Part shown: one piece after another, positions 3,517-61,049 of the stretch
How positions within the stretch are numbered: the stretch's first letter is position 1
Layout of the letters: each line of letters begins with the position of its first letter
DNA from: an uncultured cyanobacterium
GTDB lineage: Bacteria > Cyanobacteriota > Cyanobacteriia > Cyanobacteriales > CAWUOF01
Assembly: GCA_963744145.1 (NCBI GenBank)
Contig: CAVUSO010000001.1
Coordinates: 4,346,943-4,410,942 of the forward strand
Reading direction: 5' to 3'
DNA length: 64,000 nucleotides
The notes under the pieces: model-generated
The model's input: the letters and a program-made list of their open reading frames with translations, nothing else
Told to the model about the DNA's origin: nothing
Databases searched by the model: none
Made by a program: the position numbers and the translations under genes

Positions 3517-3774
3517 TCAACCAGGATTTGTAGGGGCAGGTTCACCAATCAATTCTGATTCAAACAGATCACGATCATAAACCTGCCCAACCAAACGAGA
3601 TAACTTCATCAACGTGGAATCCGCTGTATCTGGTGGGTTTCGTCGGAATCGGTTTCTGGTTTCTGTTGCTGACGCATCCGGTAATTGGGTTTGGATTGCA
3701 TCAATGATAATGCTTTGCTCAAATTTTTTGAAATCGCGTAAATCTTGAACTGCTTCAGGCGTAAGGTCACACAA
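3517..3774 (-). pseudogene. possible RelE/ParE-like toxin remnant
   Basis: The N-terminal LTPEAVQDLRDFKKFEQSIIIDAIQTQL...ETRNR resembles small cyanobacterial RelE/ParE-like proteins. There is no ATG start, and the C-terminus runs into the hairpin repeat at 3530-3588. Confidence 0.3.
3530..3588. repeat. 59-nt hairpin repeat GTAGGGGCAGGTTCACC...AACCTGCCC
   Basis: A near-identical copy lies at 55404-55462. Confidence 0.7.
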
Positions 3775-8777: not shown

Positions 8778-10220
8778 TTACCTTGCTGCTTCAGAAATGG
8801 CAATTGGTAACCAAAGCACAAAAGTTGTTCCTCGTCCTGGATTAATGATGGTGGAATCGGGATCATAATCAGGTAACCACTCAGGGATCACAGGGGAATA
8901 GATATCGATTTTACCTTGCATTTGCTCTACTAAATCTTTCGCGATCGCCAAACCTAACCCTGTTCCAGGAATATTGGTTTGAGCTTGGACTCCACGATAA
9001 TGTCGTTCAAATAAATGTTCTCGATCTTGGGGGGGAATTCCCGGTCCTGTGTCACTAATTGCGATCGGCTGTAGTTGATTTTCCCAGGAGCAGTTCATGG
9101 GCATTGCCCGAATATATATATATCCTCCCTGGGGGGTATATTTTAAAGCATTATCGATTAAATTCGTGAATACTTCACATAAAGCTTTGTCATTCCCTAG
9201 CACTGGTGGTAAATTCGGGGAGATTTCCGCTTCTAGATTTAATTGTCTTTCTGAAGCGATCGCTTGTGCGGAAACTAGCAATGGTGCTAGAATCTTGGCC
9301 AGATCACAAATTGTACGAGGTAAATTTCGTCCCAGGAGTAAATTCTCAGCTGGTAACATCGGCAGTGATAAGTTATTCTTAGCTGAGATGACAATATCTG
9401 CATCAGCCTGGATTTCCTGGTTCGGTTGGACAGGTGTTAAAGTTAACTCAACTTGTTCTAAGTCGATACTTCGATCTAAATCTTGGAGTAATTCGTTCAA
9501 GCGATCGCTTTCTCTGACTATACTTTGAGCAATATCCCGGTTCGGATCTGGGGGTGAGAGTCGTTTGAGGAGTAGTTTCCCAAAAGTTTTTAAAGCAGTT
9601 AACGGATTGCGAAATTGATGGAGTAGATTGCTTAAGAGATTTTGCTGTTGTTCTTGTAATAGTTGTTGTTCATTTAATTGGGCAAAAGACCATTGAGCCC
9701 TTCGATCTAATAAACAAGCGATCGCTAAGGTGTGAGCAATTAGTTCTACTTGGGGTCTTTCTCCCTCATTCCAAGCTCGATCTTCTCTTCCTGTCACCAA
9801 TAATCCCATCATTACTCCTTCATGGATCATTGGTAAGACCAATTGATACTGTGGTCGCAGGGTATTTTTTTGATTTTCCTGATTTAATTCTGATAAGACT
9901 TCATAGTTAGAAGACTGTCTAATTAGATTCGTATCAGTTCGGGACAAATCCTTTGTTACTCCCGCTGATAATAATCGAGGTAGGTTGGTCGGTTGGTCAA
10001 CTCGTTTAGCTGATCCTGGTCTAGTAATTTCCCAAGTTTGCTCCCTGTCCCATCCCTTGGTGGTTTCCGGGTAAACGACGATGGGTATGAGTTTGGCATC
10101 TGTATCCAATAGTTCTTCAGTCAAGTAGACTACACTCAATGACGCTCCTAGTCCTTGAGTTAAAAGTGCTACCTGAGATTGGCACAAAGTAATAAATTCG
10201 GCACTGGTGGAAATTAACAT
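8778..10220 (-). CDS. sensor histidine kinase with N-terminal GAF-like domain
   Basis: H-box HQFRNPLTALKTF, and HATPase motifs NLIDNALKYT, DTGPGI and GTGLGLAI. Confidence 0.8.
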   Translation of the reverse strand: MLISTSAEFITLCQSQVALLTQGLGASLSVVYLTEELLDTDAKLIPIVVYPETTKGWDREQTWEITRPGSAKRVDQPTNLPRLLSAGVTKDLSRTDTNLIRQSSNYEVLSELNQENQKNTLRPQYQLVLPMIHEGVMMGLLVTGREDRAWNEGERPQVELIAHTLAIACLLDRRAQWSFAQLNEQQLLQEQQQNLLSNLLHQFRNPLTALKTFGKLLLKRLSPPDPNRDIAQSIVRESDRLNELLQDLDRSIDLEQVELTLTPVQPNQEIQADADIVISAKNNLSLPMLPAENLLLGRNLPRTICDLAKILAPLLVSAQAIASERQLNLEAEISPNLPPVLGNDKALCEVFTNLIDNALKYTPQGGYIYIRAMPMNCSWENQLQPIAISDTGPGIPPQDREHLFERHYRGVQAQTNIPGTGLGLAIAKDLVEQMQGKIDIYSPVIPEWLPDYDPDSTIINPGRGTTFVLWLPIAISEAAR

Positions 10221-23373: not shown

Positions 23374-23713
23374 CAATACGATCAGTTAAGTGTAGGGGTG
23401 AAGCATTCGGGCGATAATTGAACAATCAAGCTAGTAATATTAGATCCGAATGCTTCACCCTTCTAAAGCGGAGAAGCTCCCAAAAAATTCTTAACTGAAT
23501 ATATTGTAGTATATAGTTGATCTGTTGGCTGCATAGATGTGAGGGCAAAGCATTTCGGTCATATTAATATATAGTTGATCTGTTGGCTGCATAGATGTGA
23601 GGGCAAAGCATTTCGGTCATATTATTCTTCCCTTCGACTACGCTCAGGATAAACGTTTAATCAATTATTTATTCGCCGAAATGCTTTGCCCCTACAGTTA
23701 ACTGAACCGGATT
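23374..23713. mobile_element. composite palindromic MITE, copy 1
   Basis: Ends CAATACGATCAGTTAAGTGTAGGGG ... CCCCTACAGTTAACTGAACCGGATTG. Inside are a GGTGAAGCATTCGG/CCGAATGCTTCACC hairpin, a GGGCAAAGCATTTCGG/CCGAAATGCTTTGCCC hairpin, and a 58-bp internal tandem duplication (23511-23626). Confidence 0.7.
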
Positions 23714-23777
23714 GTGTTATATTACTCTAGCTAACTACAAGTTGCATAGCAGAAAATTAATCTTTTGTTGATGTACT

Positions 23778-26693: not shown

Positions 26694-28039
26694 GTAGGGG
26701 CAAAGCATTTCGGCGCAGAAATTATTGCCTTAACACCGAAAACTATGACCGAAATGCTTTGCCCTCAGCCATACCTGCATCCAACCGATCGACCAAATCA
26801 ACCCATATCTGCATTCAAGCGATCAACTAAATCAACCAATAGTTGGAAAATCGTCGCGGGAGCTGGCCTAATTATTTCCTCCTTAACAATTATCGCGGGG
26901 GCTGGGCGAAGCATTCCCCAATTAAATTTATCCATGACCTGATCAGTGATCGTGGGGAATGCTTCGCCCCTACGGCGATCGCCCTTCTTTTCCATCAACC
27001 TAAAACAGAATTTGAGCCGTCTTTGTAGGGGCAAAGCATTTCGGCGCAGAAATCATGACTTTAACCCCGAAAATTATGACCGAAATGCTTTGCCCTCAGC
27101 CAGGTCTGCATCCAACCGATCGACCAAATCAACCCATATCTGCATCCAACCGATCGACCAAATCAACCCATATCTGCATTCAAGCGATCGACCAAATCAA
27201 CCCATATCTGCATCCAATCGATCGACCAAATCAACCCATATCTGCATTCAAGCGATCAACTAAATCAACCAATAGTTGGAAAATCGTCGCGGGAGCTGGC
27301 CTAATTATTTCCTCCTTAACAATTATCGCGGGGGCTGGGCGAAGCATTCCCCAATTAAATTTATCCATGACCTGATTAGTGATCGTGGGGAATGCTTCGC
27401 CCCTACGGCGATCGCCCTTCTTTTCCATCAACCTAAAACAGAATTTGAGCCGTCTTTGTAGGGGCAAAGCATTTCGGCGAAAAAATCATGACTTTAACGC
27501 CGAAAATTATGACCGAAATGCTTTGCCCTCAGCCAGGTCTGCATCCAACCGATCGACCAAATCAACCCATATCTGCATCCAATCGATCGACCAAATCAAC
27601 CCATATCTGCATTCAAGCGATCAACTAAATCAACCAATAGTTGGAAAATCGTCGCGGGAGCTGGCCTAATTATTTCCTCCTTAACAATTATCGCGGGGGC
27701 TGGGCGAAGCATTCCCCAATTAAATTTATCCATGACCTGATCAGTGATCGTGGGGAATGCTTCGCCCCTACGGCGATCGCCCTTCTTTTCCATCAACCTA
27801 AAACAGAATTTGAGCCGTCTTTGTAGGGGCAAAGCATTTCGGCGCAGAAATCATGACTTTAACGCCGAAAATTATGACCGAAATGCTTTGCCCTCAGCCA
27901 GGTCTGCATCCAACCGATCGACCAAATCAACCCATATCTGCATCCAACCGATCGACCAAATCAACCCATATCTGCATCCAACCGATCGACCAAATCAACC
28001 CATATCTGCATCCAATCGATCGACCAAATCAACCAACAG
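26694..28039. repeat. nested repeat array: 4 higher-order units (331, 433, 365 and a partial 217 bp), each holding 2, 5, 3 and 4 copies of a 34-bp tandem repeat
   Basis: Each unit has three parts. Hairpin A is GGGGCAAAGCATTTCGGCG...CCGAAATGCTTTGCCC. The 34-mer is CTGCATCCAACCGATCGACCAAATCAACCCATAT repeated n times. Hairpin B is GGGCGAAGCATTCCCC-N34-GGGGAATGCTTCGCCC. Unit starts are 26694, 27025, 27458 and 27823. Confidence 0.9.
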
Positions 28040-32142: not shown

Positions 32143-32199
32143 CATTACCACCAACCAAAACATTATCTTGGAGTATACGACTAACCGCGTCTAATAATT

Positions 32200-32460
32200 C
32201 AATCCGGTTCAGTTAACTGTAGGGGTGAAGCATTCGGGCGATAATTGAACAATCAAGCCAGTAACATTATATCCGAATGCTTCACCCTTCTTCTGCGCCG
32301 AGATATCAAAAACATTCTTAACTGAATGTATTTTAATGTATAGTTGATCTGTTGGCTGCATAGATATGAGGGCAAAGCATTTCGGTAATATTATTCTTCG
32401 CTTAAGCTATCATTTATTTGCCGAAATGCTTTGCCCCTACAAGTTAACTGAATCGGATTG
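32200..32460. mobile_element. composite palindromic MITE, copy 2
   Basis: CAATCCGGTTCAGTTAACTGTAGGGG ... CCCCTACAAGTTAACTGAATCGGATTG, with the same two internal hairpins as copy 1. Confidence 0.75.
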
Positions 32461-32484
32461 AGTTATAATTAATTATTGGCTCAA

Positions 32485-50297: not shown

Positions 50298-51689
50298 TTA
50301 TTTGATCGTGCAAGTATTGCAGCCACAAACTGAATTTACGCCCGGTTCAGTAGTTAACCATTGACCATTCCAACCACCACTATTCGCACAAGTATTAGGA
50401 CATTTGTTCTGAGCATCCTGCTGACTCCAAATTGCTCCGGCATTCAAATCGCAACCGCAAGTATAATTATCCCTAATTTCCTGTTTTATAGTCTTTGCCA
50501 TGGTATTTAACCAGTTTTTTGCGTCATTGTCTAGAGTAAACAAGATGGGGTTAGCTGTATTGATCAAATCATACATTTTTTGGTAAGTGGGATAGGATTG
50601 AGACAATTGAGTAAACACCGTATGCCGAGTAGGCATTAAGTATTGAGGTATACCAGATTCATCGGCACTAATACTTTTAACCATATAGTCGGAAGACGCT
50701 AATAAATTGGCAAGTTTGACAGCTAAGTCACGATTGCCCCGCTCAACTGCTTGAGGATGAATTCCAATTACATCTGCATAAAAAAGAGCTTGGCGATCGT
50801 CATCAGCAAGGGGCATCAATTTAAAATCAATCTTCTTCAAATAATCTGGATTCATGGCGGACATTGATTCAGTGAATCCAACTACAGCCCGTCCTTTACC
50901 ATTGCTAAACCAATTCGCTCTGATGTAGGGATCACTGGTGTCCTGGGTAGCATTATAATAGCTGGACATTTTCAACAGTTTGCGTAAGTTAGCGATCGCA
51001 TTCTGATCAACTTCCTGTTGATTCCATGGTTCGGGTACAGGAAATTTATCGGTGATACTAGCTAGAGCATCAATATAAAGACAAGCATTAGTAGTGCTCC
51101 CAGCCAGATCTACCATTAATCCTTGCTGATCAGGGGGTTGTTGGCTAGTGTAACTACACTGACCAATGGTATGATAAATATCATCAAGTTTGCTAGCCTT
51201 TTGCAAAGCTATATCTGTATTCCAGTAGAAAAGAATATTGGTACAACCTAATTGGGGAATGGCATAGTATGTATTTTCGGCTTTGTGATCTTTAACTCCG
51301 TTAATTGCATAGGGCAAAAAATCATCGGCTGCTTCGATTTCCTGACTATTTAATGGTAGTAACCAGCCATGAGAACGAAAGTAATTAAGAAAGATCGCAT
51401 CAAAGACGTAAACGTCAGCGTTTTGGGGAGGTTCATTATGATAACCACCATCCCACTCTTGTGATGACAGGATCTGTAGCGTGACTTCTGGTTCAATTTG
51501 CTGCCATGCAGTTTGAATTGACTGTTTGAATTGTTCTAGTCTAGGAACCCAAGGATATAAAGCAACAGTTAGGGTTTTCTGATTTGAAACTGACCAAGCA
51601 GGAGGTGAAAAACCCAAGATTGTAGCCAGAAAAAAGCTGGCGATCGCCAAACCAGAAATAACCCTTGTCCAAGTTTTTTTCGGTAACAT
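50298..51689 (-). CDS. secreted thiaminase I (thiamine pyridinylase)-like protein with C-terminal MVL-type Cys-rich lectin domain
   Basis: Signal peptide. LTVALYPWVPRLEQF, DVYVFDAIFLNYF, YAIPQLGCTNILFY (nucleophile Cys position), YIRANWFSNGKGRAVVGFTESM and QYLMPTRH parallel Paenibacillus thiaminase I. The tail AGAIWSQQDAQNKCPNTCANSGGWNGQWLTTEPGVNSVCGC parallels an MVL repeat. Confidence 0.75.
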   Translation of the reverse strand: MLPKKTWTRVISGLAIASFFLATILGFSPPAWSVSNQKTLTVALYPWVPRLEQFKQSIQTAWQQIEPEVTLQILSSQEWDGGYHNEPPQNADVYVFDAIFLNYFRSHGWLLPLNSQEIEAADDFLPYAINGVKDHKAENTYYAIPQLGCTNILFYWNTDIALQKASKLDDIYHTIGQCSYTSQQPPDQQGLMVDLAGSTTNACLYIDALASITDKFPVPEPWNQQEVDQNAIANLRKLLKMSSYYNATQDTSDPYIRANWFSNGKGRAVVGFTESMSAMNPDYLKKIDFKLMPLADDDRQALFYADVIGIHPQAVERGNRDLAVKLANLLASSDYMVKSISADESGIPQYLMPTRHTVFTQLSQSYPTYQKMYDLINTANPILFTLDNDAKNWLNTMAKTIKQEIRDNYTCGCDLNAGAIWSQQDAQNKCPNTCANSGGWNGQWLTTEPGVNSVCGCNTCTIK

Positions 51690-52033
51690 TTGTTAATTTA
51701 CTCCTATGATAACTTTCCGGTCTGAGATCGTTACGGTTAACCAGACTCAAGCAATTTCGGATTGAAATCGGCTGGCGTTCCTCTTTAGATATATAATTTG
51801 GTTTTAACATCTGTCAATTAAACTTAAATTTTATTTATAAAAGATTACATAGAATATTTTATTTGGTTAAAATAAATTGTAAATAATCATAAATTTTTCT
51901 AATAATCTAATATTATTATGGTATCTATTATTATCCCTAGTGTATTGAGTAAACGACTTAATATTTTGGGTTTAATCAATCGAGAAAATCAATTAGAATA
52001 TGGCTCTCCCGGATTTATGGTTATAAGTAAGAC

Positions 52034-53197
52034 TTATATTGCCTGAACAGCGAGCATTTCCGCCCTCATTAACCAAAAGATTTGTAGCTTAAGATACTTT
52101 TTTACCACAGAGCCGAGAGAGCCTAATTTTTCAGATGATTCAAACTCGAGTTGGTCACCTTTATATCGGCTAGGAACTTGGCTGATAATAATACTGGGCA
52201 AAGGATCTCGATCATCTGTGGCAGGAGATTTAGCACCAATCAATTTCAGGATTTTTTCTGTTCCTGCCAAAGACTGAGCGCTTAATGTTGTGACAAATGT
52301 TCTGTATACTCTTGGATCAAGTAGTAAACCTGTAGCAAGTTCGGAAAGTCCAGCACGTAAATCTACTAACACCGCATCTACTCCTAATTTTTTGCCGAGC
52401 TTAGACAAAATTTCTGTGAGAATAAACGGATTACTCGAACCTTGAATAAGATGCTCTGGTCGAATCTCTAAAGATGTAAAGTCTTGACTGGAACGATAGG
52501 CTGGTAATACATAAATTCCATCTACCATACTATCAATCAAACGATCGGCAACTAATTGAATTGCGATCGCTCCATCAGGAGAAGTATCTCCATGTACCAG
52601 TGCGAGGAGATCGGCAAAAGCAATCAGTGGATTTGGAAAGCGTTTTTCAAATATCCAACTAATCCCAGGAGCTTCTAGATCGGCATCAATTAATAGCACT
52701 TGATATTTCTCTGAAGAAGTGGATAGTGCTTGAGCTAAAGCTAAAATGTGAGTTGTTCTGCCTACTCCCCCTTTAAATGAATGAAAAGTAACCACAGGAG
52801 GCAAATTTGGTTCTAACGGGGTGGGAAATTCTGGTAATTGGTTCGGCTGCCAGATTACACTGGGGCGAGTTAAGCTAGAAATTAATTTTGGTACATAAGG
52901 GCTTTCATCTGTTTCTTCAAAGATGATTGGTAAGGTGCGATCGCTACCATTTAGACCTTCTAAAATAATTGCATCATATTTAGCTTCTGAATTATCTTGA
53001 AATCTAGGCTCAAAGTTTTCTTGTAACCATTGCTTTACTTGTGGTTGGCTATGAGGACGAATACCTAAAGTTAAATTATCCCAATAAGCTCGAATCCAAA
53101 TGACAGATTGCTCCCATCCATTTTCAAGGGTTTGAAGATATAGGAAAACTTCTTCAACATCAACCCATGTATATAACCGAATATGTGAAGGGATCAT
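52034..53197 (-). CDS. ParA/MinD-fold ATPase with variant Walker A KGGVGR and an unassigned ~140-aa N-terminal domain
   Basis: FHSFKGGVGRTTHILALAQAL, and LLIDADLEAPG (Walker A' / switch region). Confidence 0.65.
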   Translation of the reverse strand: MIPSHIRLYTWVDVEEVFLYLQTLENGWEQSVIWIRAYWDNLTLGIRPHSQPQVKQWLQENFEPRFQDNSEAKYDAIILEGLNGSDRTLPIIFEETDESPYVPKLISSLTRPSVIWQPNQLPEFPTPLEPNLPPVVTFHSFKGGVGRTTHILALAQALSTSSEKYQVLLIDADLEAPGISWIFEKRFPNPLIAFADLLALVHGDTSPDGAIAIQLVADRLIDSMVDGIYVLPAYRSSQDFTSLEIRPEHLIQGSSNPFILTEILSKLGKKLGVDAVLVDLRAGLSELATGLLLDPRVYRTFVTTLSAQSLAGTEKILKLIGAKSPATDDRDPLPSIIISQVPSRYKGDQLEFESSEKLGSLGSVVKKYLKLQIFWLMRAEMLAVQAI

Positions 53198-53402
53198 AAA
53201 TTAATGTTTTCCTTAATCCAGACGTAAAATCGGCTATAATGGTTGCCACAGAACTGGATATTGATCACTTGATCTTTGATTTGGTTCATGATTGACTTGG
53301 GAATAGGAGAAAATGAGGTATAATTTTTTGTATTACCCAATTTTTTCGGTAATATTAGACTATACTCAATTATAACCTTGAGCAGATATCTAGGCAATAG
53401 CA

Positions 53403-55232
53403 ATGACTCGCAAAGCCTTAGTCATCGGGATTAAAAATTATCCCAACTTCAGGGGAAGAGGACAAAGACAGGATCTGGAAAACCATCCTCTGGATGCAAA
53501 AGCGATCGCCGATTTTTTGAGAAAGTTCGGACGCTTTGAGGTGGAAGTTCTCCCCAAAACTGAGATTGATGGAGCTTATCAGGTTGATGAAAAAGGTATT
53601 GTAACAGCAAAGCAGCTAAAGAATGCCATTTACGATTTGTTTGTTGATCCCAAAGATGGTAAGATCCCCCAGACTGCATTACTATTTTTTGCTGGTCACG
53701 GTTTAGCGATCGAGGAATATCGCAAAACGATCGGCTATCTCTGTACAAGTGACACAAATAAAGACCAAGAAAAATGGGGTGTAGAGTTTCGCTGGTTAGC
53801 TGAACAACTTGGAAACAGTCAAGTATCAGAGCAAATTATCTGGTTAGATTGTTGTCACAGTGGACACTTGACTCAGCAAATTTTTGAGCAGACAAATCCT
53901 GGGAATCGAGATGATATAAAGCGCTCAATTATTGCGTCTTGTAGGGATTCAGAAATATCCCTAGGTGTAGATGGTCACGGGGTGCTGACACATCTTTTGA
54001 AAAAAGTGCTTCACCCTGAACAGTATGATGTTAGTTTTGCTATTAACAGTTCAGAAATTCAAGCAGCAGTAGAGCGAGAATTTCATGCTCATCCCAAATT
54101 TGGGACTTATCCTCAGCGTCCGTTATTTTTCCATTGTGGTAGACCAATTCATTTTTGGGAAGGTAGAGGGAAGCAAAGCGATCGCAAGTTTGAAATTTCT
54201 TCCGCAAATCAACCTTTTTGGTTAGCAGATAGCTTGCAGAATGATTCCCCATCTCTTAATAATTCCGAGTTATCTTGGTTTTGTTCTCTTCGAGAAGATC
54301 CAAATGTTTATGATCGGATTAGAAAAGCATACCAAGACTCTTTACCTCCCGATGCAGGATTGTGGGATTTAGAAGGAAATAATCTTCACCAGATTTTACA
54401 AGAGCTTAAAGTATTTAGAAGATTATTTGAATTTTTTAACCGTCTTAGTAAAGATGAAAATTTGCCTGAAGAAATTCGCGATCGCTTCAAAAACTGGGCT
54501 GAAAGGTTAGAGCCAAAAAAGTATCCAGATCCGATTAATTCTAGCGATCGCGAACTTGAATCCTATTTAATTGCTAAAATTGAACCTGATGAGGGATCTG
54601 ACAAATTTTTAGTAAATGCTTGGTTAATTATGGATAACTCAATCCCAGCAAATAACCTATTTAGATTTGAATCTCTGATTGATGGGAATGAACATCAACA
54701 GGGAATAGTTTGTCAATTTAATCAAATCCCAGAAAAATTAAATGAATTTCTAAAAAAATCTCGTAGAAATCTCCGAGGGAGAAAATATAACTTAACTATT
54801 GAGGTGTTTGTACCCAGTGATTTAATGTGTACAGAAGTCGATCGCTGGAAAATTATTGACCCAATCGATGATGAAGCTACTTTGGGTATTAGGTATCCGA
54901 TTCGATTGCGATCGGTAGAACGGTTACAGATTGATTATTTGGATGCGTATTTGTCTGATTGGTATAAACAGTGGGAGCGGGTAAAAAATATCTTCCATAA
55001 GGAACCAACTCCAGAATTATTTGAAACTATTGAGAAAATGGAAAATTTTAATTGGAAAATGTTGAAAAATAGTTTAATGGAAAAAATTGGTCTTAAGCTA
55101 ACTTGCGCTCATCCTCAAGGGAAAAGAAAGGAGTTATTTAAAGCTATTTTAACAGCAACCACTCCCATTGCTATTTGGACAAGATGTGATATTCCTAATG
55201 TAGATCAAGTAGCTGATACCAATTCACCATGA
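53403..55232 (+). CDS. caspase (peptidase C14) domain fused to a VMAP-like (vWA-MoxR associated protein) middle and C-terminal region
   Basis: KALVIGIKNY, catalytic His in LLFFAGHG, and Cys in IWLDCCHSGH. The C-terminal half (YNLTIEVFVPSDLMCTEVDRWKI...TPIAIWTRCD) resembles VMAP-C. It probably lost its extreme C-terminus to the repeat insertion at 55270. Confidence 0.65.
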   Translation: MTRKALVIGIKNYPNFRGRGQRQDLENHPLDAKAIADFLRKFGRFEVEVLPKTEIDGAYQVDEKGIVTAKQLKNAIYDLFVDPKDGKIPQTALLFFAGHGLAIEEYRKTIGYLCTSDTNKDQEKWGVEFRWLAEQLGNSQVSEQIIWLDCCHSGHLTQQIFEQTNPGNRDDIKRSIIASCRDSEISLGVDGHGVLTHLLKKVLHPEQYDVSFAINSSEIQAAVEREFHAHPKFGTYPQRPLFFHCGRPIHFWEGRGKQSDRKFEISSANQPFWLADSLQNDSPSLNNSELSWFCSLREDPNVYDRIRKAYQDSLPPDAGLWDLEGNNLHQILQELKVFRRLFEFFNRLSKDENLPEEIRDRFKNWAERLEPKKYPDPINSSDRELESYLIAKIEPDEGSDKFLVNAWLIMDNSIPANNLFRFESLIDGNEHQQGIVCQFNQIPEKLNEFLKKSRRNLRGRKYNLTIEVFVPSDLMCTEVDRWKIIDPIDDEATLGIRYPIRLRSVERLQIDYLDAYLSDWYKQWERVKNIFHKEPTPELFETIEKMENFNWKMLKNSLMEKIGLKLTCAHPQGKRKELFKAILTATTPIAIWTRCDIPNVDQVADTNSP

Positions 55233-55269
55233 AGATACATTGATGTATATTGATCTGTGGGTGAGGGTG

Positions 55270-55462
55270 GGTTTTGATGATTAGTAGGTAAATGTCAAAC
55301 ATCTCGGTGAACCCGGGCGGGTTTTTCTAATTAATTGGTAAATTTCAAAAATCTGGGCGAACCCGCCCCTACTACAGAAATCCGCAAATTGAGGATAAAA
55401 TTGGTAGGGGCAGGTTCACCAGTCAATTTTGCCACCAACAGATCACCATTATAAACCTGCCC
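55270..55462. repeat. cluster of GGGCGGGTT/AACCCGCCC and GTAGGGGCAGGTTCACC hairpin repeats inserted between two genes
   Basis: Two GGG(T/C)GGGTTT...GAACCCG(G/C)C units plus the 59-nt element (55404-55462) also found at 3530-3588. Confidence 0.7.
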
Positions 55463-55709
55463 TGACCTAACAGATCAACCTCAGATTAAGTGCAATTTCA
55501 TAGTTAATTGGTATGAACCCCATGATGATATTAATCGTCTTCCTGATCCCCCCAGTTAGCGTAAATTTACGGGTGCAGATGAGGAAATTATTACAGAAAT
55601 TGAACAACGCTGGGAAAAGTTTGGTGATAGTTTAGATCACAATAAAAGGGATGAGGAACGGGGTAAAAGTTTCCGTATCCATAGTGATCAGGATAATGAC
55701 CGAAATAGT

Positions 55710-56528
55710 GTGATTAATATGGTCAATGCTGCTTTATATTTAAGACGACCTTTATTAGTTACAGGAAAACCAGGGACAGGTAAAACCTCTTTAGCTTATG
55801 CGATCGCTTATGAATTAAAATTAGGGACTGTATTACCTTGGTATATTACAGCCCGTTCAACTTTACAAGAGGGATTATATCGCTATGATGCGATCGCGCG
55901 TCTGCAAGATGTGCAAATGGGTGATAAAAGTAAAGATATCGGTCGCTATATTACATTAGGTTCACTAGGAACAGCATTACTCCCTTCCCGTCGTCCTCGT
56001 GTATTATTGATTGATGAAGTAGACAAAAGTGATATTAATTTACCCAATGATTTACTCAACTTATTTGAGGAGGGAGAATTTAAAATCCCAGAATTAGTCC
56101 GGATTTCTAAAGACGTGAATCAGGTAGAAGTTCGTACTTATGATGGCATAGATGTCCCCATAAAAGACGGTAAAGTGCGTTGTCTGAATTTTCCATTTAT
56201 TATTTTGACAAGTAACGGTGAACGAGATTTTCCGCCAGCATTTCTCAGACGTTGTTTAAGGTTAAATATGCCTTATAATCCTGATGCAACAGCGTTACTG
56301 GAAATAGTAAAAGCCCATTTAGAGAAAGATAAATTAACTCAAGATCAGCCAAAAATCGAGAATTTAATCAATAAGTTTAAAGAATTACGAGAAGGAGGAG
56401 ATATTGCCACAGATCAACTACTGAATGCAATTTATATGGTGACTCGTGAGTTTAAACCTGAACCAGCAGAAGAAAAAGACCTAATTGAAGTGCTAATGAA
56501 ATACTTAAGCAGTGCGGAGGATCGATGA
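55710..56528 (+). CDS. MoxR-type AAA+ ATPase, N-terminally compromised
   Basis: Walker [14 protein letters not shown], Walker [12 protein letters not shown], and sensor region FLRRCLRL. The same frame continues upstream to 55509 ([26 protein letters not shown]...) with an in-frame TAG at 55557-55559 and no ATG. Confidence 0.7.
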
Positions 56529-58924
56529 TTAATCGCTTAATTAATGCGTTGAGCAAGGAAGTGGAATTGTCAGCTAAAGAAATTGCTGCAAATTCGTTGG
56601 GGTATCGGTGCAACTGCTAAGAATCAATCTCCCCGTAGTCCAAAAGAATTAATTGACCCTAGTGGTCGGCATTTGGTATTGGTAGTAAGTGATTGTGTAT
56701 CATCTTACTGGCGGTAATGGAAAGGTTACATCTGTATTAGAAATCTGGGCAAAACAAGGGTCAATAGCAATTATCCAGATGCTACCTAAATGGATGTGGA
56801 AAAGAACCGCTTTAGGGAGAGCATCTGAAGTGCGGTTGCGAGGACTGACTCCAGGGGTATTCAATCAGAATTTAATCGCTAAAGAAGTATCTTTGTGGGA
56901 TGAACTGGATGAGGAAAGAGGGGTTAAAGTTCCTGTATTTACCTTAGAAGCGGATCATGCTGTAACTTGGGCACTTATGTTATCAGGAAAGGGGAGTATT
57001 TGGGTATCGGGATATGTGTTTAAATTAGATATAGTTCCTGTTAAAAAGGAAAGTAGCTTATTGAATTTTGCTGGTGATTTAAGTGCAGAGCATCGCGTGC
57101 AAGCATTTCGGGTAACAGCTTCACCAATGGCGCGGAAATTAGCAGGTTTATTAGCTTCTGCACCTGTAATAACTCTACCAATTGTTCGATTGATTCAGGA
57201 AGCACTGTTAAAAGATTCTCTACAAGTTAATGTAGCTGAGGTCTTTTTAGGAGGATTATTAAAACCGTTATCTGAAATTAATGCAGAAACGAATCCTGAT
57301 TATGTTCAATATGATTTTATGGATGGAGTACGTGATTTATTGCTTGATTCTGTGCCTTCAAATTATACTTTGACTGTCATTAATGAGGTATCAAAATATG
57401 TAGCGAAAAAGATGGAGTTATCCTTAGATAATTTTGCGGCTGTTTTGAAGAATGAGCAACTCATTAGGAATAGTGAGATTGTTGAAGATGTTGGATATTT
57501 TGCGACAGTTACAGCTCAAATTTTGAGACGTTTAGGTGGGGAGTATGTAAAGGTTGCTGAAGAATTGGAGAGTTATAATCAACCAAATTATAAAATAAAT
57601 GTTCAAACCACAGTTAAGAAAAATTATAATCTTTTATGGGAACATAAAAACACTAAAATTTATAGTTTTTGCACAGATCAACCTTGGGTTTTACCTTTTG
57701 ATACTTTAGTAATTCCTATGGGATGTAGCATATTCTTACATAACAAATTGCTATCTGGAGGAGGATTTAGTAAGGGATTTCAACATTTTTTAGGTAAAAA
57801 TATAGTTCTTTTTGATCAATCAGTTGCTATGGCTTTAGGAGAGGATAAAAATAATCAAAAACAAGTTAGTCCTAATAAACCTTTACTTGTCCCTCTAGCT
57901 TCTGAAATTAATCATCAACTTTCTTTAACCAATGGTTATAAAATTAACCATTTTGTCATTATTACAACAGTAGAATCTCCAGAACCTAGTGTATTAAATG
58001 CCGTTGATGCTATTAATTCTATCATTGCTCTAGCAGTAAAACAAGGATTAAAGTACATAATTGTTCCTTTATTAGGAACTGGAAATATTGGATTATCTGT
58101 TGATAAAGTAGCGACTGAAATGTTATCAGCAATTAATAAAAGTTTAAAAAATTTATCATCTAATTCTATAGAAGAAATTATTTTTGTAGATAAAAGCGAA
58201 AATACCATTACAAAAATTAATCAAATTGCACAGAGTTTATTTACTGAAGAAGATACAGATCAAGTTCAGCAACCTTCAGAACTATTCCGAGCGAATCCTG
58301 AACCTCGCATTCCAGTTGTTCTAATCCTTGATACATCAGGTTCAATGTCGGGTCAACCTATTAATGAGTTAAATCAAGGATTAGTTACTTTTCAGCAAGA
58401 ACTGAACAAAGATGATTCGGGTTCTATGCGTGTAGAAGTTGCGATTATTACCTTTAACACTTCTGTAACGATTGTTCAAGATTTTGTGAGAGTTGACCAA
58501 TTTAAGCCCCCTTGTCTCTCAGCATCAGGAGTAACGGCAATGGGTGAAGCCATTGAAACAGCGATCTCCCTGCTAGAATATCGGAAAGAGACTTATAAAA
58601 ATAATGGTGTTCGTTATTATCGTCCTTGGGTATTGCTAATTACAGATGGCTCACCCACTGACAATTGGCAAAGTGCTGCTAAAAAGATTCGACAATTTGC
58701 GGTCCAATCAAAAAATCAACTTTTTTGCAGTGGGTGTTCAGGACGCGGATATTGGTATTCTCTCACAGATTGCTCCTACCGATACGCCGCCTCTTAAGTT
58801 AAGAGGATTGTCGTTTATTGAGTTATTTCAGTGGTTATCATCCTCAATAATATCCGGAGTATATAGGAGTACACCCGTTACTCAAGTTACTCTTCCTCCA
58901 ATAGGATGGGCAACTGATTTTTAA
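56525..58924 (+). pseudogene. vWA partner of the MoxR/VMAP system, with macro-like and TerY-type vWA C-terminal domains; disrupted by one deletion and two frameshifts
   Basis: ATGA overlap with the MoxR stop. [22 protein letters not shown] (SAV_2336-type N-terminal helix) then breaks. The next frame reads SPRSPKELIDPSGRHLVLVVSDCVSSYWR* (stop 56715-56717). The third frame is ORF 56689..58797. The fourth is 58646..58924, after an A6 run at 58710-58715. Confidence 0.6.
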
Positions 58925-58965
58925 ACTTAGGCAAATATGAGGAATAGAAGTACATTATTATAACA

Positions 58966-59365
58966 CAATACAGTTCAGTTAACCGTAGGGGCAAAGCATT
59001 TCGGCGAATAAATGATTGCTTAAACGTTTACCCTGAGCGTAGTCGAAGGGAAGAATAATATTACCGAAATGCTTTGCCCTTACCATCTATGCAGCCAACA
59101 GATAAACTAGATATTACAATCCATTCAGTTAAGGATTTTTTGGGATATCTCGACGAAGAAGGGCGAAGCATTCGGATATAATATTACTGCCCTTCGACTA
59201 CGCCCCCTTCGACTACGCTCAGGGCAAGCTTCGACTACGCTCAGGGCAAGCTTCGACTACGCTCAGGGTAAACTCAGGGTAAAGTTTGATTGTTCAATTG
59301 TCGCCCGAATGCTATGCCTCCGGCACGCTACGCGAACGCCCCTACAATTAACTGAACCGTATTAC
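58966..59365. mobile_element. composite palindromic MITE, copy 3 (inverted relative to copies 1 and 2)
   Basis: CAATACAGTTCAGTTAACCGTAGGGG ... CCCCTACAATTAACTGAACCGTATT. It carries about three tandem copies of the 22-mer CTTCGACTACGCTCAGGGCAAG (59190-59280). Confidence 0.7.
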
Positions 59366-59414
59366 AATATAATGAAAGCAGATAAAACTCCTACTTATCA
59401 GAAGGAGGCAAAAA

Positions 59415-59666
59415 ATGCCAATTAAAAGCAACAGTGTCATGGGAAAAGTTTTTGCCACTCTGACAATTATTAATCGATCTGACCAAATTCGGGCAGAAGA
59501 TGGGATAATTCCCTTAACCCAAATTCGCTCAATCAAGCTCAATAATGTCTTAGTAGATCAAGGTGTAACTACCTTGTGTTTACCATCAGATGCGATCGCC
59601 ACGCTAGGGTTAAAACTGCTGAAAGAAGTAACCGAAGATTATTTGGGAATAATGACTCTCCACTAA
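59415..59666 (+). pseudogene. truncated retropepsin-like protease (same family as 14573 and 15261)
   Basis: MGKVFATLTIINRSDQ...NNVLVDQGVTTLCLPSDAIATLGLKLLKEV, then unrelated sequence and a stop. The catalytic DTG is changed to DQG. Confidence 0.6.
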
Positions 59667-59680
59667 TATCATTGAATTAG

Positions 59681-59737
59681 GTAAAAATGATTGTATACGA
59701 TCCGATTAAGGAGGAAATCGTCAGATGGATACACTAG
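59681..59737 (+). pseudogene. xisH: xisH 3' stub (18 codons)
   Basis: VKMIVYDPIKEEIVRWIH*, overlapping the xisI ATG. Compare LKLIVYEPLTEEIVQWIN* at 1459-1512. Confidence 0.55.
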
Positions 59738-60057
59738 AGCATTATCGTCAGTGCATTGAAAAGTTGCTATTAGCATACGGGAAGTCACCGCCTATTAATG
59801 GTGAAATAGAAGTGGAAGTAGTTTTCGATAAAGAACGCGATCGCTATCTAATTATCGATTTGGGATGGAATGAACATCACCGTGTTTATAACTGCTTTAT
59901 TCACTTGGATATCTTAGATGGGAAAATCTGGATTCAGCGCAATCAAACAGACAAAAGTATCGCTGAAGAATTAGTAGAAATGGGTGTTCCCAAAGAAGAT
60001 ATCGTCTTGGGACTTCAATCTCGCTATGTCCGGGAGTATACGGGGTTTGGAGTATAG
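59725..60057 (+). CDS. xisI: XisI family protein
   Basis: 110 aa. LEHYRQCI, RDRYLIIDLGW, GKIWIQRNQTD and MGVPKEDIVLG. Confidence 0.85.
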   Translation: MDTLEHYRQCIEKLLLAYGKSPPINGEIEVEVVFDKERDRYLIIDLGWNEHHRVYNCFIHLDILDGKIWIQRNQTDKSIAEELVEMGVPKEDIVLGLQSRYVREYTGFGV

Positions 60058-60482
60058 AGAAAAACCGCATTTTCTATACATATCAATATTGTTAGGAGGC
60101 GATAGCCCCTCTTCAAGATGTCCAAGTGGGCGATCAACGTAAGGCCAAATTTGGTAGATAATATCTATGAACCACGCCTGACACCAAGGCACTAAGGTAA
60201 GAAAGGTTGGAAGCAATTACCTCCGACTTTCTAAGGAATGAAAATTAAATAACATGATCATTCATGCTGGCCGCGATTTAAACGAAATTAGAGATTATTT
60301 TGCCTCTCTGAGTGGTGCATGGCTCGCGCTTAAAAGACTTGTTTGAATTACCAGATTTCTAAGCACAAAGAGCGATCGCTCCTTCAATATAAGTTATAAT
60401 CATTGGAACACTACAAGGTGATATCGAAGTAGATCCGGTATTGAAATCAAAAGCTTGATTCTGTAATAGGTTGGTAAAACTT

Positions 60483-61049
60483 ATGTCTCTATTAGCAACT
60501 AAACAACTAAGGAAAAAGTTCACAGTAGAGGAATATCACAAGCTAGGTGAAGTAGGGATAATTGGACCTGATGAACGGACAGAACTAATTGATGGGGATA
60601 TTATGCTTATGGCACCGATGGGTAGTGGTCATGTAAGCTGTGTTGGTCGTTTGCTGAAAATGTTCTTTAAAGCTTTAGGTGATCGTGCCACAATCTTGTC
60701 CCAAACTCCAGTCAGGCTAAACAACGGATTAGAACCAGAACCGGATCTATCAATTTTGCACCCGCGTGAAGATTGTTACAGGCATCAGCTCCCACAACAT
60801 CAAAACGTATATTTATTAATCGAAGTAGCCGATACTACCATTAACAACGACCGTAATGTGAAGTCAGTCCACTACAGTCAAGCTGGGATTATTGAACTTT
60901 GGATCGTAGACATTAGGGCCGAATTAGTTGAGGTGTATCGCAACCCTGGTCCTAACGGCTATGAAAGTATCCAACAATTCAGACGTGGTGATACTATTTC
61001 ACCCCTGGCGTTTCCGGACATAGTGATCGGTGTTGACGATATTCTGTAG
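60483..61049 (+). CDS. Uma2 family putative endonuclease
   Basis: Paralog of 2744..3337. The termini are nearly identical and the central third is diverged. Confidence 0.8.
   Translation: MSLLATKQLRKKFTVEEYHKLGEVGIIGPDERTELIDGDIMLMAPMGSGHVSCVGRLLKMFFKALGDRATILSQTPVRLNNGLEPEPDLSILHPREDCYRHQLPQHQNVYLLIEVADTTINNDRNVKSVHYSQAGIIELWIVDIRAELVEVYRNPGPNGYESIQQFRRGDTISPLAFPDIVIGVDDIL

Follow-up and report, generated by a model that had tools for sequence, protein, structure and literature searches.

Does a cyanobacterial locus that carries the domains of a nucleoside triphosphate (NTP)-dependent conflict system still encode one that can work, and is its composition new? This question is raised by positions 52034-58924 of a 64-kb stretch of DNA from an uncultured cyanobacterium, which as a whole is the window that was searched (all plain coordinates are window positions). 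A reading of this DNA made without database searches (the sequence-only reading) had proposed that four intact genes, encoding a ParA-like KGGVGR ATPase, a caspase-VMAP protein, a MoxR-type AAA+ ATPase and a very large von Willebrand factor A (vWA) protein with a macro-like domain and a second vWA domain, form a candidate conflict system of non-canonical composition. Based on comparison with related loci, we find instead that 53403-58924 is very probably a degraded, pseudogenised VMAP-type MoxR-vWA ternary conflict system, and that 52034-53197 is a separate, truncated KGGVGR gene without conserved linkage to it.

VMAP ternary systems have a strict VMAP, MoxR, vWA gene order. Two motifs, WxhapG and PsWRxa, mark the N-terminus of their MoxR, and their vWA component consists of a core flanked by helical extensions and, behind it, a domain array that is hypervariable (Kaur, Burroughs, Iyer & Aravind, eLife 2020, PMC7159879). 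The window matches this order, with VMAP (53403-55232), MoxR (55515-56528) and vWA (56525-58924) genes all on the plus strand. It also resembles the published systems in its VMAP protein, which combines an N-terminal peptidase with VMAP-M and VMAP-C domains, in the variable effector array on its vWA component, which here consists of a macro domain and a YegL-type vWA, and in its cyanobacterial host. The likeness is partial for MoxR, where a remnant of the PsWRxa motif is left, and for the vWA component, where the helical extensions are found. On the other hand, the window copy differs from these systems in lacking the C-terminus of VMAP-C, the MoxR start, the WxhapG motif, the motif Trp and the vWA region with the metal ion-dependent adhesion site (MIDAS). 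The sequence-only reading had placed the locus in the vWA-MoxR-VMAP ternary class, and the domain matches given below (VMAP-C, VMAP-M1, Peptidase_C14 and SAV_2336_NTERM) together with the gene order bear this placement out.

Intact relatives served as the reference for each gene. Twenty related loci were obtained, 17 of them by a single genome scan with a MoxR alignment as query and the rest by look-ups of exact proteins; the nearest loci in the scan came from Nostocales and Oscillatoriales. A scan of genome contigs with the caspase-VMAP protein alone gave no match, and the scan with the MoxR alignment succeeded instead. Seventeen loci (3 from exact-protein look-ups and 14 from the genome scan) were checked for how their MoxR and vWA genes read, and 15 of these share one layout, in which a VMAP gene is followed by an intact 348-aa MoxR (M..WKIF.GN...PP.WR.F) and a vWA gene of 738-1529 aa. 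At the loci L002, L007, L008 and L009, a VMAP protein with full VMAP-C and the 348-aa MoxR are accompanied by a vWA protein of 756-1282 aa that starts at an ATGA overlap with the MoxR stop. The MoxR of the window is 78-93% identical to those of the 17 loci from the genome scan.

Compared with these relatives, the VMAP gene of the window is cut short. In Pfam profile searches, its 609-aa product matched Peptidase_C14 (PF00656; 3.3e-14, 53.6 bits against a cutoff of 21.4), VMAP-M1 (PF19963; 6.8e-07) and VMAP-C (PF20028; 2.7e-23, 83.5 bits against a cutoff of 27). The divergently transcribed caspase and VMAP-like protein of the sequence-only reading is therefore present, as are the caspase motifs FFAGHG (53685) and LDCCHSG (53844), and the His/Cys dyad is intact. 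The VMAP-C domain that defines the class is there, though the match covers only profile positions 2-176 of 226, compared to positions 6-226 of 226 in the intact L009 protein. The 644-aa VMAP homolog of L002 aligns to the window over residues 1-587 only, and the conserved VMAP-C C-terminal ~57 residues are missing from the window relative to L002, L009 and L027.

A repeat-rich segment lies at the junction with the MoxR gene. The VMAP gene of L002 ends 21 bp before the MoxR ATG, while 282 bp separate the two genes in the window. Within this segment lie a direct repeat, TT(A/C)ATTGGTA, at 55323/55496 and terminator-like hairpins at 55303-55324, and part of it recurs at 3526-3608. It takes out the MoxR start codon and the WxhapG motif (the first 11 codons). 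Further on, the PsWRxa motif reads P-S-stop-R-K-F, with TAG at 55557-55559 in place of the Trp codon. The M..WKIF.GN start and P.WR were found in 17/17 relatives checked, and the Trp is kept in all of them. Neither MoxR motif is thus intact in the window, while the PsWRxa remnant shows the ancestry of the gene. With the in-frame stop included in the alignment, the window sequence is 86% identical to residues 12-348 of the L002 MoxR, and the MoxR core is 86-92% identical to intact relatives. The MoxR-type ATPase of the sequence-only reading thus corresponds to the MoxR genes of these relatives but does not exist as an intact gene, since it has no start codon where its homologs have theirs and is interrupted by TAG.

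The vWA component is spread over three reading frames in the window record. Its ATG at 56525 overlaps the MoxR stop as ATGA, and the same overlap was seen in 16 of the 17 relatives checked; the ORF (open reading frame) that begins there, however, is only 31 codons long, so that the very large vWA partner predicted from this start codon holds for the overlap but not for a continuous gene. The 5' remnant corresponds to residues 1-21 of the L002 and L009 vWA proteins and includes the N-terminal extension EVELSAKEIA. At a deletion junction at ~56588-56592, the sequence jumps to homolog residue ~196-217 in another frame, and ~175-195 codons are gone, including the linker and the MIDAS motif DESIS. 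We observed the same loss with SAV_2336_NTERM, an NCBIfam model that spans the vWA core and its extensions in intact relatives. The 702-aa ORF of the window matched this model at 5.9e-70 over profile positions 242-474 of 475 only, compared to 2-474 in intact L009. Both helical extensions are therefore present, while the core with DESIS is deleted. Beyond the junction, the window is 79% identical to L002 residues 255-564, and an extra G at 56713/14 in the window record divides the ORF from 56583. Near the end of the component, L002 residues 1004-1180 align in one frame and residues 1167-1236 in another, with the final third of the C-terminal vWA out of frame with the rest.

These sequences were compared with two contigs, L001 and L026, which were assembled independently by Logan from run ERR11571142 of the same strain. 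L001 is identical to window 52972-55242 and thereby reproduces the truncated VMAP end, and L026 equals window 55487-58702 save for one base and contains both the TAG and the deletion junction. Since the lesions are identical in L001 and L026, we regard the large lesions as real. The one differing base is the extra G at 56713/14, where L026 has a single G compared to GG in the window, and the ORF in L026 reads through from 56583. An exact look-up of the 702-aa ORF product gave no match, probably because the independent assembly lacks this frameshift.

Together, these findings indicate a disabling lesion in each of the three core genes. Since MoxR has lost its specific N-terminal region, the vWA core the MIDAS face that captures peptides, and VMAP-C its conserved end, a functional ternary complex is not to be expected from this locus. 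Of the four intact genes proposed by the sequence-only reading, the VMAP and KGGVGR genes are 3'-truncated, the MoxR gene is interrupted and the vWA gene has lost its core, and the proposal of a working candidate system is not supported. In intact relatives, following the models of Kaur et al. 2020 and Dore et al. 2023, the MoxR ring and its vWA co-chaperone would hold VMAP and the effector array inactive until invader sensing leads to ATP-driven remodelling and activation of the VMAP caspase, which may then release or activate the variable C-terminal modules. In the family represented by the window, one such module would be a macro domain that binds ADP-ribose and the other a vWA domain that binds proteins. 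The two published models differ in where sensing takes place. Kaur et al. propose that VMAP relays sensing to MoxR, after which ATP-driven remodelling switches on the VMAP peptidase and the effector modules are freed as this peptidase cuts the vWA component (PMC7159879), whereas Dore et al. 2023 assign sensing to the variable C-terminal array and the effector role to the VMAP peptidase.

Several observations weigh against the view that the locus is a pseudogenised ternary system. Long ORFs survive, namely the caspase-VMAP (609 aa), the AAA+ core (269-272 aa) and, starting at an internal TTG, a macro-vWA ORF that exceeds 700 aa, and the truncated products may have residual or new activity. The independent assembly does not have the extra G at 56713/14, which probably arose as an error of assembly or is polymorphic within the sample, and the frameshift in the A6 run at 58710-58715 is seen in the window record only, since L026 ends at 58702. 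The placement of the ATPase in the MoxR clade follows the classification of Kaur et al. 2020 and the family-specific motif, and our own tests did not place it there: the ORF in the MoxR region matched only the generic AAA and AAA_5 families of Pfam, a MoxR profile search against Protein Data Bank (PDB) sequences gave P-loop matches only, to RuvBL and p97, and a single-sequence AlphaFold2 (AF2) model of the core was of low confidence (predicted local distance difference test, pLDDT, 33).

If the surviving ORFs are taken at face value, the locus could be a remnant with residual or new function, in which they act as a reduced system or as independent proteins, for example as a free caspase. We consider this unlikely. 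The ORFs in question are a C-terminally cut caspase-VMAP, an AAA+ core from ATG/GTG at 55710-55719 and a macro and YegL-vWA protein from TTG 56583; their caspase dyad and Walker A motif are intact, as is DTSGS, the second MIDAS, and the MoxR core has kept the high identity to intact relatives given above. This identity, however, may simply reflect recent decay, and what defines the ternary complex and couples its parts has been lost, namely the N-terminal motifs of MoxR, the MIDAS of the vWA core and the C-terminus of VMAP-C. Relaxed selection would produce just such a pattern, in which three neighboring genes have each been hit independently.

The second part of our question concerns composition, which the sequence-only reading had called non-canonical because of the macro and second vWA tail and the ParA-like neighbor. 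It is not, as the extra features are either already described or unlinked to the system. Pfam Macro scored 21.7 bits on the 702-aa ORF, marginally under the 22-bit cutoff, but a five-sequence profile of the macro region matched solved macro domains among PDB sequences at 1.6e-08 to 6e-05 (TTHA0132 at 1.6e-08, PARP14 and macroH2A). A Foldseek search with an AF2 model of the region, built from a two-sequence alignment and of low confidence (pLDDT 58), also gave mainly macro domains. The macro module is 47-49% identical to a module in the same position, right after the vWA core, in L009, L010 and L014, and Macro is among the effector domains already listed by Kaur et al. 2020 (PMC7159879).

The C-terminal vWA domain matched PF00092 (8e-11, 42.9 bits against a cutoff of 23.8) and has the MIDAS motif DTSGS at 58330. 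This domain (58315-58924) is up to 70% identical to stand-alone cyanobacterial vWA proteins of ~219 aa of the YegL/TerY type, one of which is annotated by its source (Joint Genome Institute, JGI) as encoded in the toxicity-protection region of plasmid R478, with a von Willebrand factor (vWF) domain. Unlike these proteins, the window domain is the last module of the vWA component of a VMAP system and is frameshifted in the window record, and no associated kinase or phosphatase was seen. A YegL-type vWA also ends the intact L002 protein, and the intact 1282-aa vWA protein of L009 carries a macro domain, two GUN4 domains and a YegL-vWA. The macro and YegL-vWA tail of the window is therefore one more recombinant of modules seen in relatives. 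Across loci whose MoxR proteins are 78-93% identical, effector tails are reshuffled among EVE, GUN4, FGE-sulfatase, receiver, Roc-COR, AAA_35/EAD10/WD40, HEAT, caspase and DO-GTPase-like domains, giving a constant core with a variable periphery. Thus, the domain assignments of the sequence-only reading pass the profile check (caspase, VMAP-C, AAA, VWA and KGGVGR directly, Macro through the five-sequence profile), while its claim of novelty for the tail does not stand.

The minus-strand ATPase with the P-loop FKGGVGRTT is real, with a match to the NCBIfam model NF047398 (AAA_KGGVGR) at 1.1e-46 and 159.6 bits against a curated cutoff of 90 and a further match to the PADLOC candidate PDC-M28B at 3.9e-18. 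The KGGVGR motif (52757-52774) is a deviant Walker A in which the P-loop Lys is replaced by Arg. Across the family this residue varies: most members have R, P0129 has K and P0127 has C. The window protein aligns to its homologs, which are 420-660 aa long, over its residues 1-358 only, and the conserved C-terminal 65-85 residues of these homologs were not found in the window in any frame. At 52-57% identity, homologs lie among unrelated genes, directly behind a small conserved gene of 72-201 aa (L003 9396-10001, L005 9586-9999 and L006 4676-4894) that overlaps the KGGVGR start in L003 and L004 and abuts it in L005. The small gene has no Pfam, NCBIfam or PADLOC match and may form a two-gene module with the KGGVGR gene. 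Survival of this upstream partner in the window was considered and rejected, as tblastn gave no match.

Could this ATPase nevertheless be a trans-acting accessory or effector of the VMAP system, encoded divergently by a gene of its own and not as a fusion with the vWA component? Predicted-inactive MinD/ParA-like domains are the commonest cell-division-related effector domain of VMAP systems and are found fused to vWA components and to AP-ATPases near such systems (Kaur et al. 2020, PMC7159879). The Lys to Arg replacement in the P-loop fits this picture, and some KGGVGR homologs have STAND/NACHT-like NTPases as C-termini and thereby resemble the 'inactive MinD/ParA + AP-ATPase' proteins of Kaur et al. 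2020. However, tblastn searches (E <= 1e-5) of flanks of up to 10 kb found a KGGVGR homolog in 0/20 VMAP loci, some of whose contigs end sooner, and VMAP, MoxR or vWA genes were found in none of three distinct genomic contexts of KGGVGR homologs, where the gene sits in an operon with the small unrelated gene. Since the window copy is truncated as well, we regard an accessory role as improbable. The neighborhood check suggested by the sequence-only reading therefore gave a split result, in that VMAP, MoxR and vWA genes co-localise in relatives while KGGVGR homologs do not join them in the flanks and contexts covered, and the claim that the ParA-like neighbor belongs to the system is not sustained. 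The window KGGVGR gene is best read, from these contexts, as a second, unrelated remnant from a different two-gene module that adjoins the VMAP system without conserved linkage. It is possibly a remnant of the PDC-M28 type. Like KGGVGR-motif variant ATPases, it has a domain well above the curated NF047398 cutoff and the deviant Walker A, but it lacks the C-terminal 65-85 residues and the small upstream partner gene that lies next to homologs. To our knowledge, PDC-M28 is a candidate system only and is not validated.

We attach still less probability to two further possibilities, namely that the surviving ORFs make up a reduced module independent of the MoxR motifs (a caspase-VMAP without its C-terminal latch, a clipped AAA+ core and a macro/YegL-vWA protein), or that the divergent KGGVGR ATPase and caspase-VMAP are a new functional pair sharing a 205-bp promoter region. 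That the lesions are artefacts of a long-read genome assembly and the real locus is intact is barely credible: the extra G is indeed absent from the Logan assembly and the second frameshift sits in an A6 homopolymer, but errors of the homopolymer type do not account for the TAG, the loss of ~175-195 codons, the 282-bp replacement or the cut VMAP end, and these large lesions are identical in the independent contigs. An intact, non-canonical four-gene system in the sense of the sequence-only reading deserves equally little credence, for although all four domain families are truly present and adjacent, and inactive MinD/ParA-like domains are associated with some VMAP systems (Kaur et al. 2020, PMC7159879), the in-frame TAG and the deleted MIDAS region contradict it, each of the core genes is disrupted, the KGGVGR gene is cut short and is adjacent in 0/20 related loci, and Macro and MinD/ParA-like modules are already in the published description.

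As a broken copy of a class described computationally since 2020, the locus carries little weight for new biology. Its value lies in showing how VMAP systems decay, and our set contains at least one other locus that decayed independently. In that locus, L027 (5845-10609), from another genome of 3.9 Mb, an IS630-like (DDE_3) element splits MoxR exactly before the AAA+ core and the vWA component is in pieces of 549 aa and 202 aa. Three routes of decay are represented: insertion of a mobile element where the VMAP and MoxR genes meet, a nonsense codon within a conserved motif, and deletion of an internal part of a gene. Two more loci, L019 and L024, may also have decayed. PADLOC has no model for VMAP, MoxR or vWA-core proteins, and besides the PDC-M28B match of the KGGVGR protein only generic caspase and ATPase matches were obtained there.

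No experimental study of a VMAP-type system was found in the literature searched, in line with what the sequence-only reading had supposed. The only experimentally supported relative that we found is the MoxR-vWA beta-propeller ternary type of Actinomycetales (Esr), for which a September 2026 preprint gives genetic evidence (bioRxiv 10.64898/2026.09.08.750141). Esr likewise builds a threat-sensing module around a constant MoxR and vWA chaperone pair, but its third component is a surface beta-propeller protein that leads to a kinase/FHA relay and Esx secretion, with no VMAP-C and no caspase. Intact relatives with the same macro module, such as L009 and the Nostoc sp. FACHB-152 locus (L014), are better candidates than the window for a first experimental test of VMAP systems in cyanobacteria. 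L009 has a Peptidase_C39-like ORF on the opposite strand (9465-9944) between its VMAP and MoxR genes, and no N-terminal effector domain was seen in its VMAP ORF of 389 aa, which starts from TTG.

The two halves of the caspase-VMAP protein differ in their affinities. Its caspase domain is 70-74% identical to caspases fused to STAND (NACHT/NB-ARC) NTPases in filamentous cyanobacteria (P0005-P0007 and P0012), whereas identity to the caspases of its closest VMAP relatives is only 36-42%; for the VMAP-M/C half, identity to those relatives is 55-68%. Since the caspase is thus closer to STAND-fused caspases and the remainder closer to VMAP proteins, the comparison points to module swapping between STAND and VMAP proteins, probably recent. 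The window protein has VMAP-M1 and VMAP-C in its C-terminal half rather than a STAND NTPase, so that the resemblance would reflect domain shuffling and not membership of the caspase-STAND group. Two paralogs in the same genome, P0019 and P0038, are 67% and 48% identical to the caspase domain (53403-54180).

Table 1. Features of the locus and its borders, in window coordinates
Feature	Position	Strand	Remarks
AT-rich intergenic tract	51690-52033	no strand	Adjoins the truncated 3' end of the KGGVGR gene; GC 0.27 compared to 0.40 for the whole window
KGGVGR-motif variant ParA/MinD-like ATPase gene, 3'-truncated	52034-53197	-	Homology to relatives confined to 52124-53197; P-loop KGGVGR at 52757-52774
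Caspase + VMAP-M1 + VMAP-C gene, without about the last 57 residues	53403-55232	+	Peptidase_C14 residues 2-207, VMAP-M1 300-372, VMAP-C 401-598
Repeat-rich segment, 282 bp	55233-55514	no strand	Small palindromic repeats, MITE-like; stands where relatives have the VMAP 3' end, a ~21-bp spacer and the 11 initial MoxR codons
MoxR-type AAA+ ATPase pseudogene	55515-56528	+	Without start codon and WxhapG motif; TAG at 55557-55559; longest ORF left 55710-56528 (AAA+ core)
vWA-component 5' remnant	56525-56620	+	ATGA overlap with MoxR and N-terminal helical extension; 31 codons, then stop
Rest of vWA component	56583-58797	+	Last vWA-core strands, conserved C-terminal extension, macro-like domain, YegL/TerY-type vWA
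Macro (ADP-ribose-binding/processing) domain module	57622-58260	+	Profile and fold matches
C-terminal YegL/TerY-type vWA	58315-58924	+	PF00092; divided by a -1 frameshift in the A6 run 58710-58715
Miniature inverted-repeat transposable element (MITE), right bound of the locus	58957-59373	no strand	36-nt terminal inverted repeats

The ORF listing for this region comprises 52034-53197 on the minus strand and 53403-55232, 55710-56528, 56689-58797 and 58646-58924 on the plus strand. Both borders named by the sequence-only reading, an AT-rich tract on the left and a MITE on the right, were confirmed (Table 1). A second copy of the AT-rich tract was looked for within the window and not found. The MITE has internal 22-nt tandem repeats, three to four units at 59192-59272, and belongs to a family with three copies in the 64 kb (23402-23721, 32194-32469 and 58957-59373). 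An integration-type island boundary could not be defined, since a search of 40-64 kb found no tRNA and promoter and terminator scans did no better than on shuffled sequence.

HIP1 (GCGATCGC) occurs 71 times in the window compared to 0.3 expected, which identifies the host as a cyanobacterium. A stretch of 3.7 kb at 55898-59591 is free of HIP1, while the window average is one per ~0.9 kb, and GC falls to 0.30 at 57.4-58.3 kb, which corresponds to the macro module. The HIP1 gap and the drop in GC may reflect recent gain of the effector cassette from outside the HIP1-rich genome background.

Past the MITE, positions 59725-61049 encode XisI (1.5e-43), a Uma2-family putative endonuclease (7e-31) and a DUF6887 protein; small accessory-type genes of this kind are typical of variable regions of cyanobacterial genomes. 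On the other side of the locus, 50298-51689 on the minus strand encodes a 463-aa protein that joins a solute-binding-protein/thiaminase-I domain to a C-terminal MVL mannan-binding lectin domain, a fusion that looks unusual. Elsewhere in the window, 26769-28034 is a complex tandem array with 34-nt units nested in 365/433-nt higher-order units at 97% identity, and its flanks have short segments in common with the MITE family of 58957-59373.

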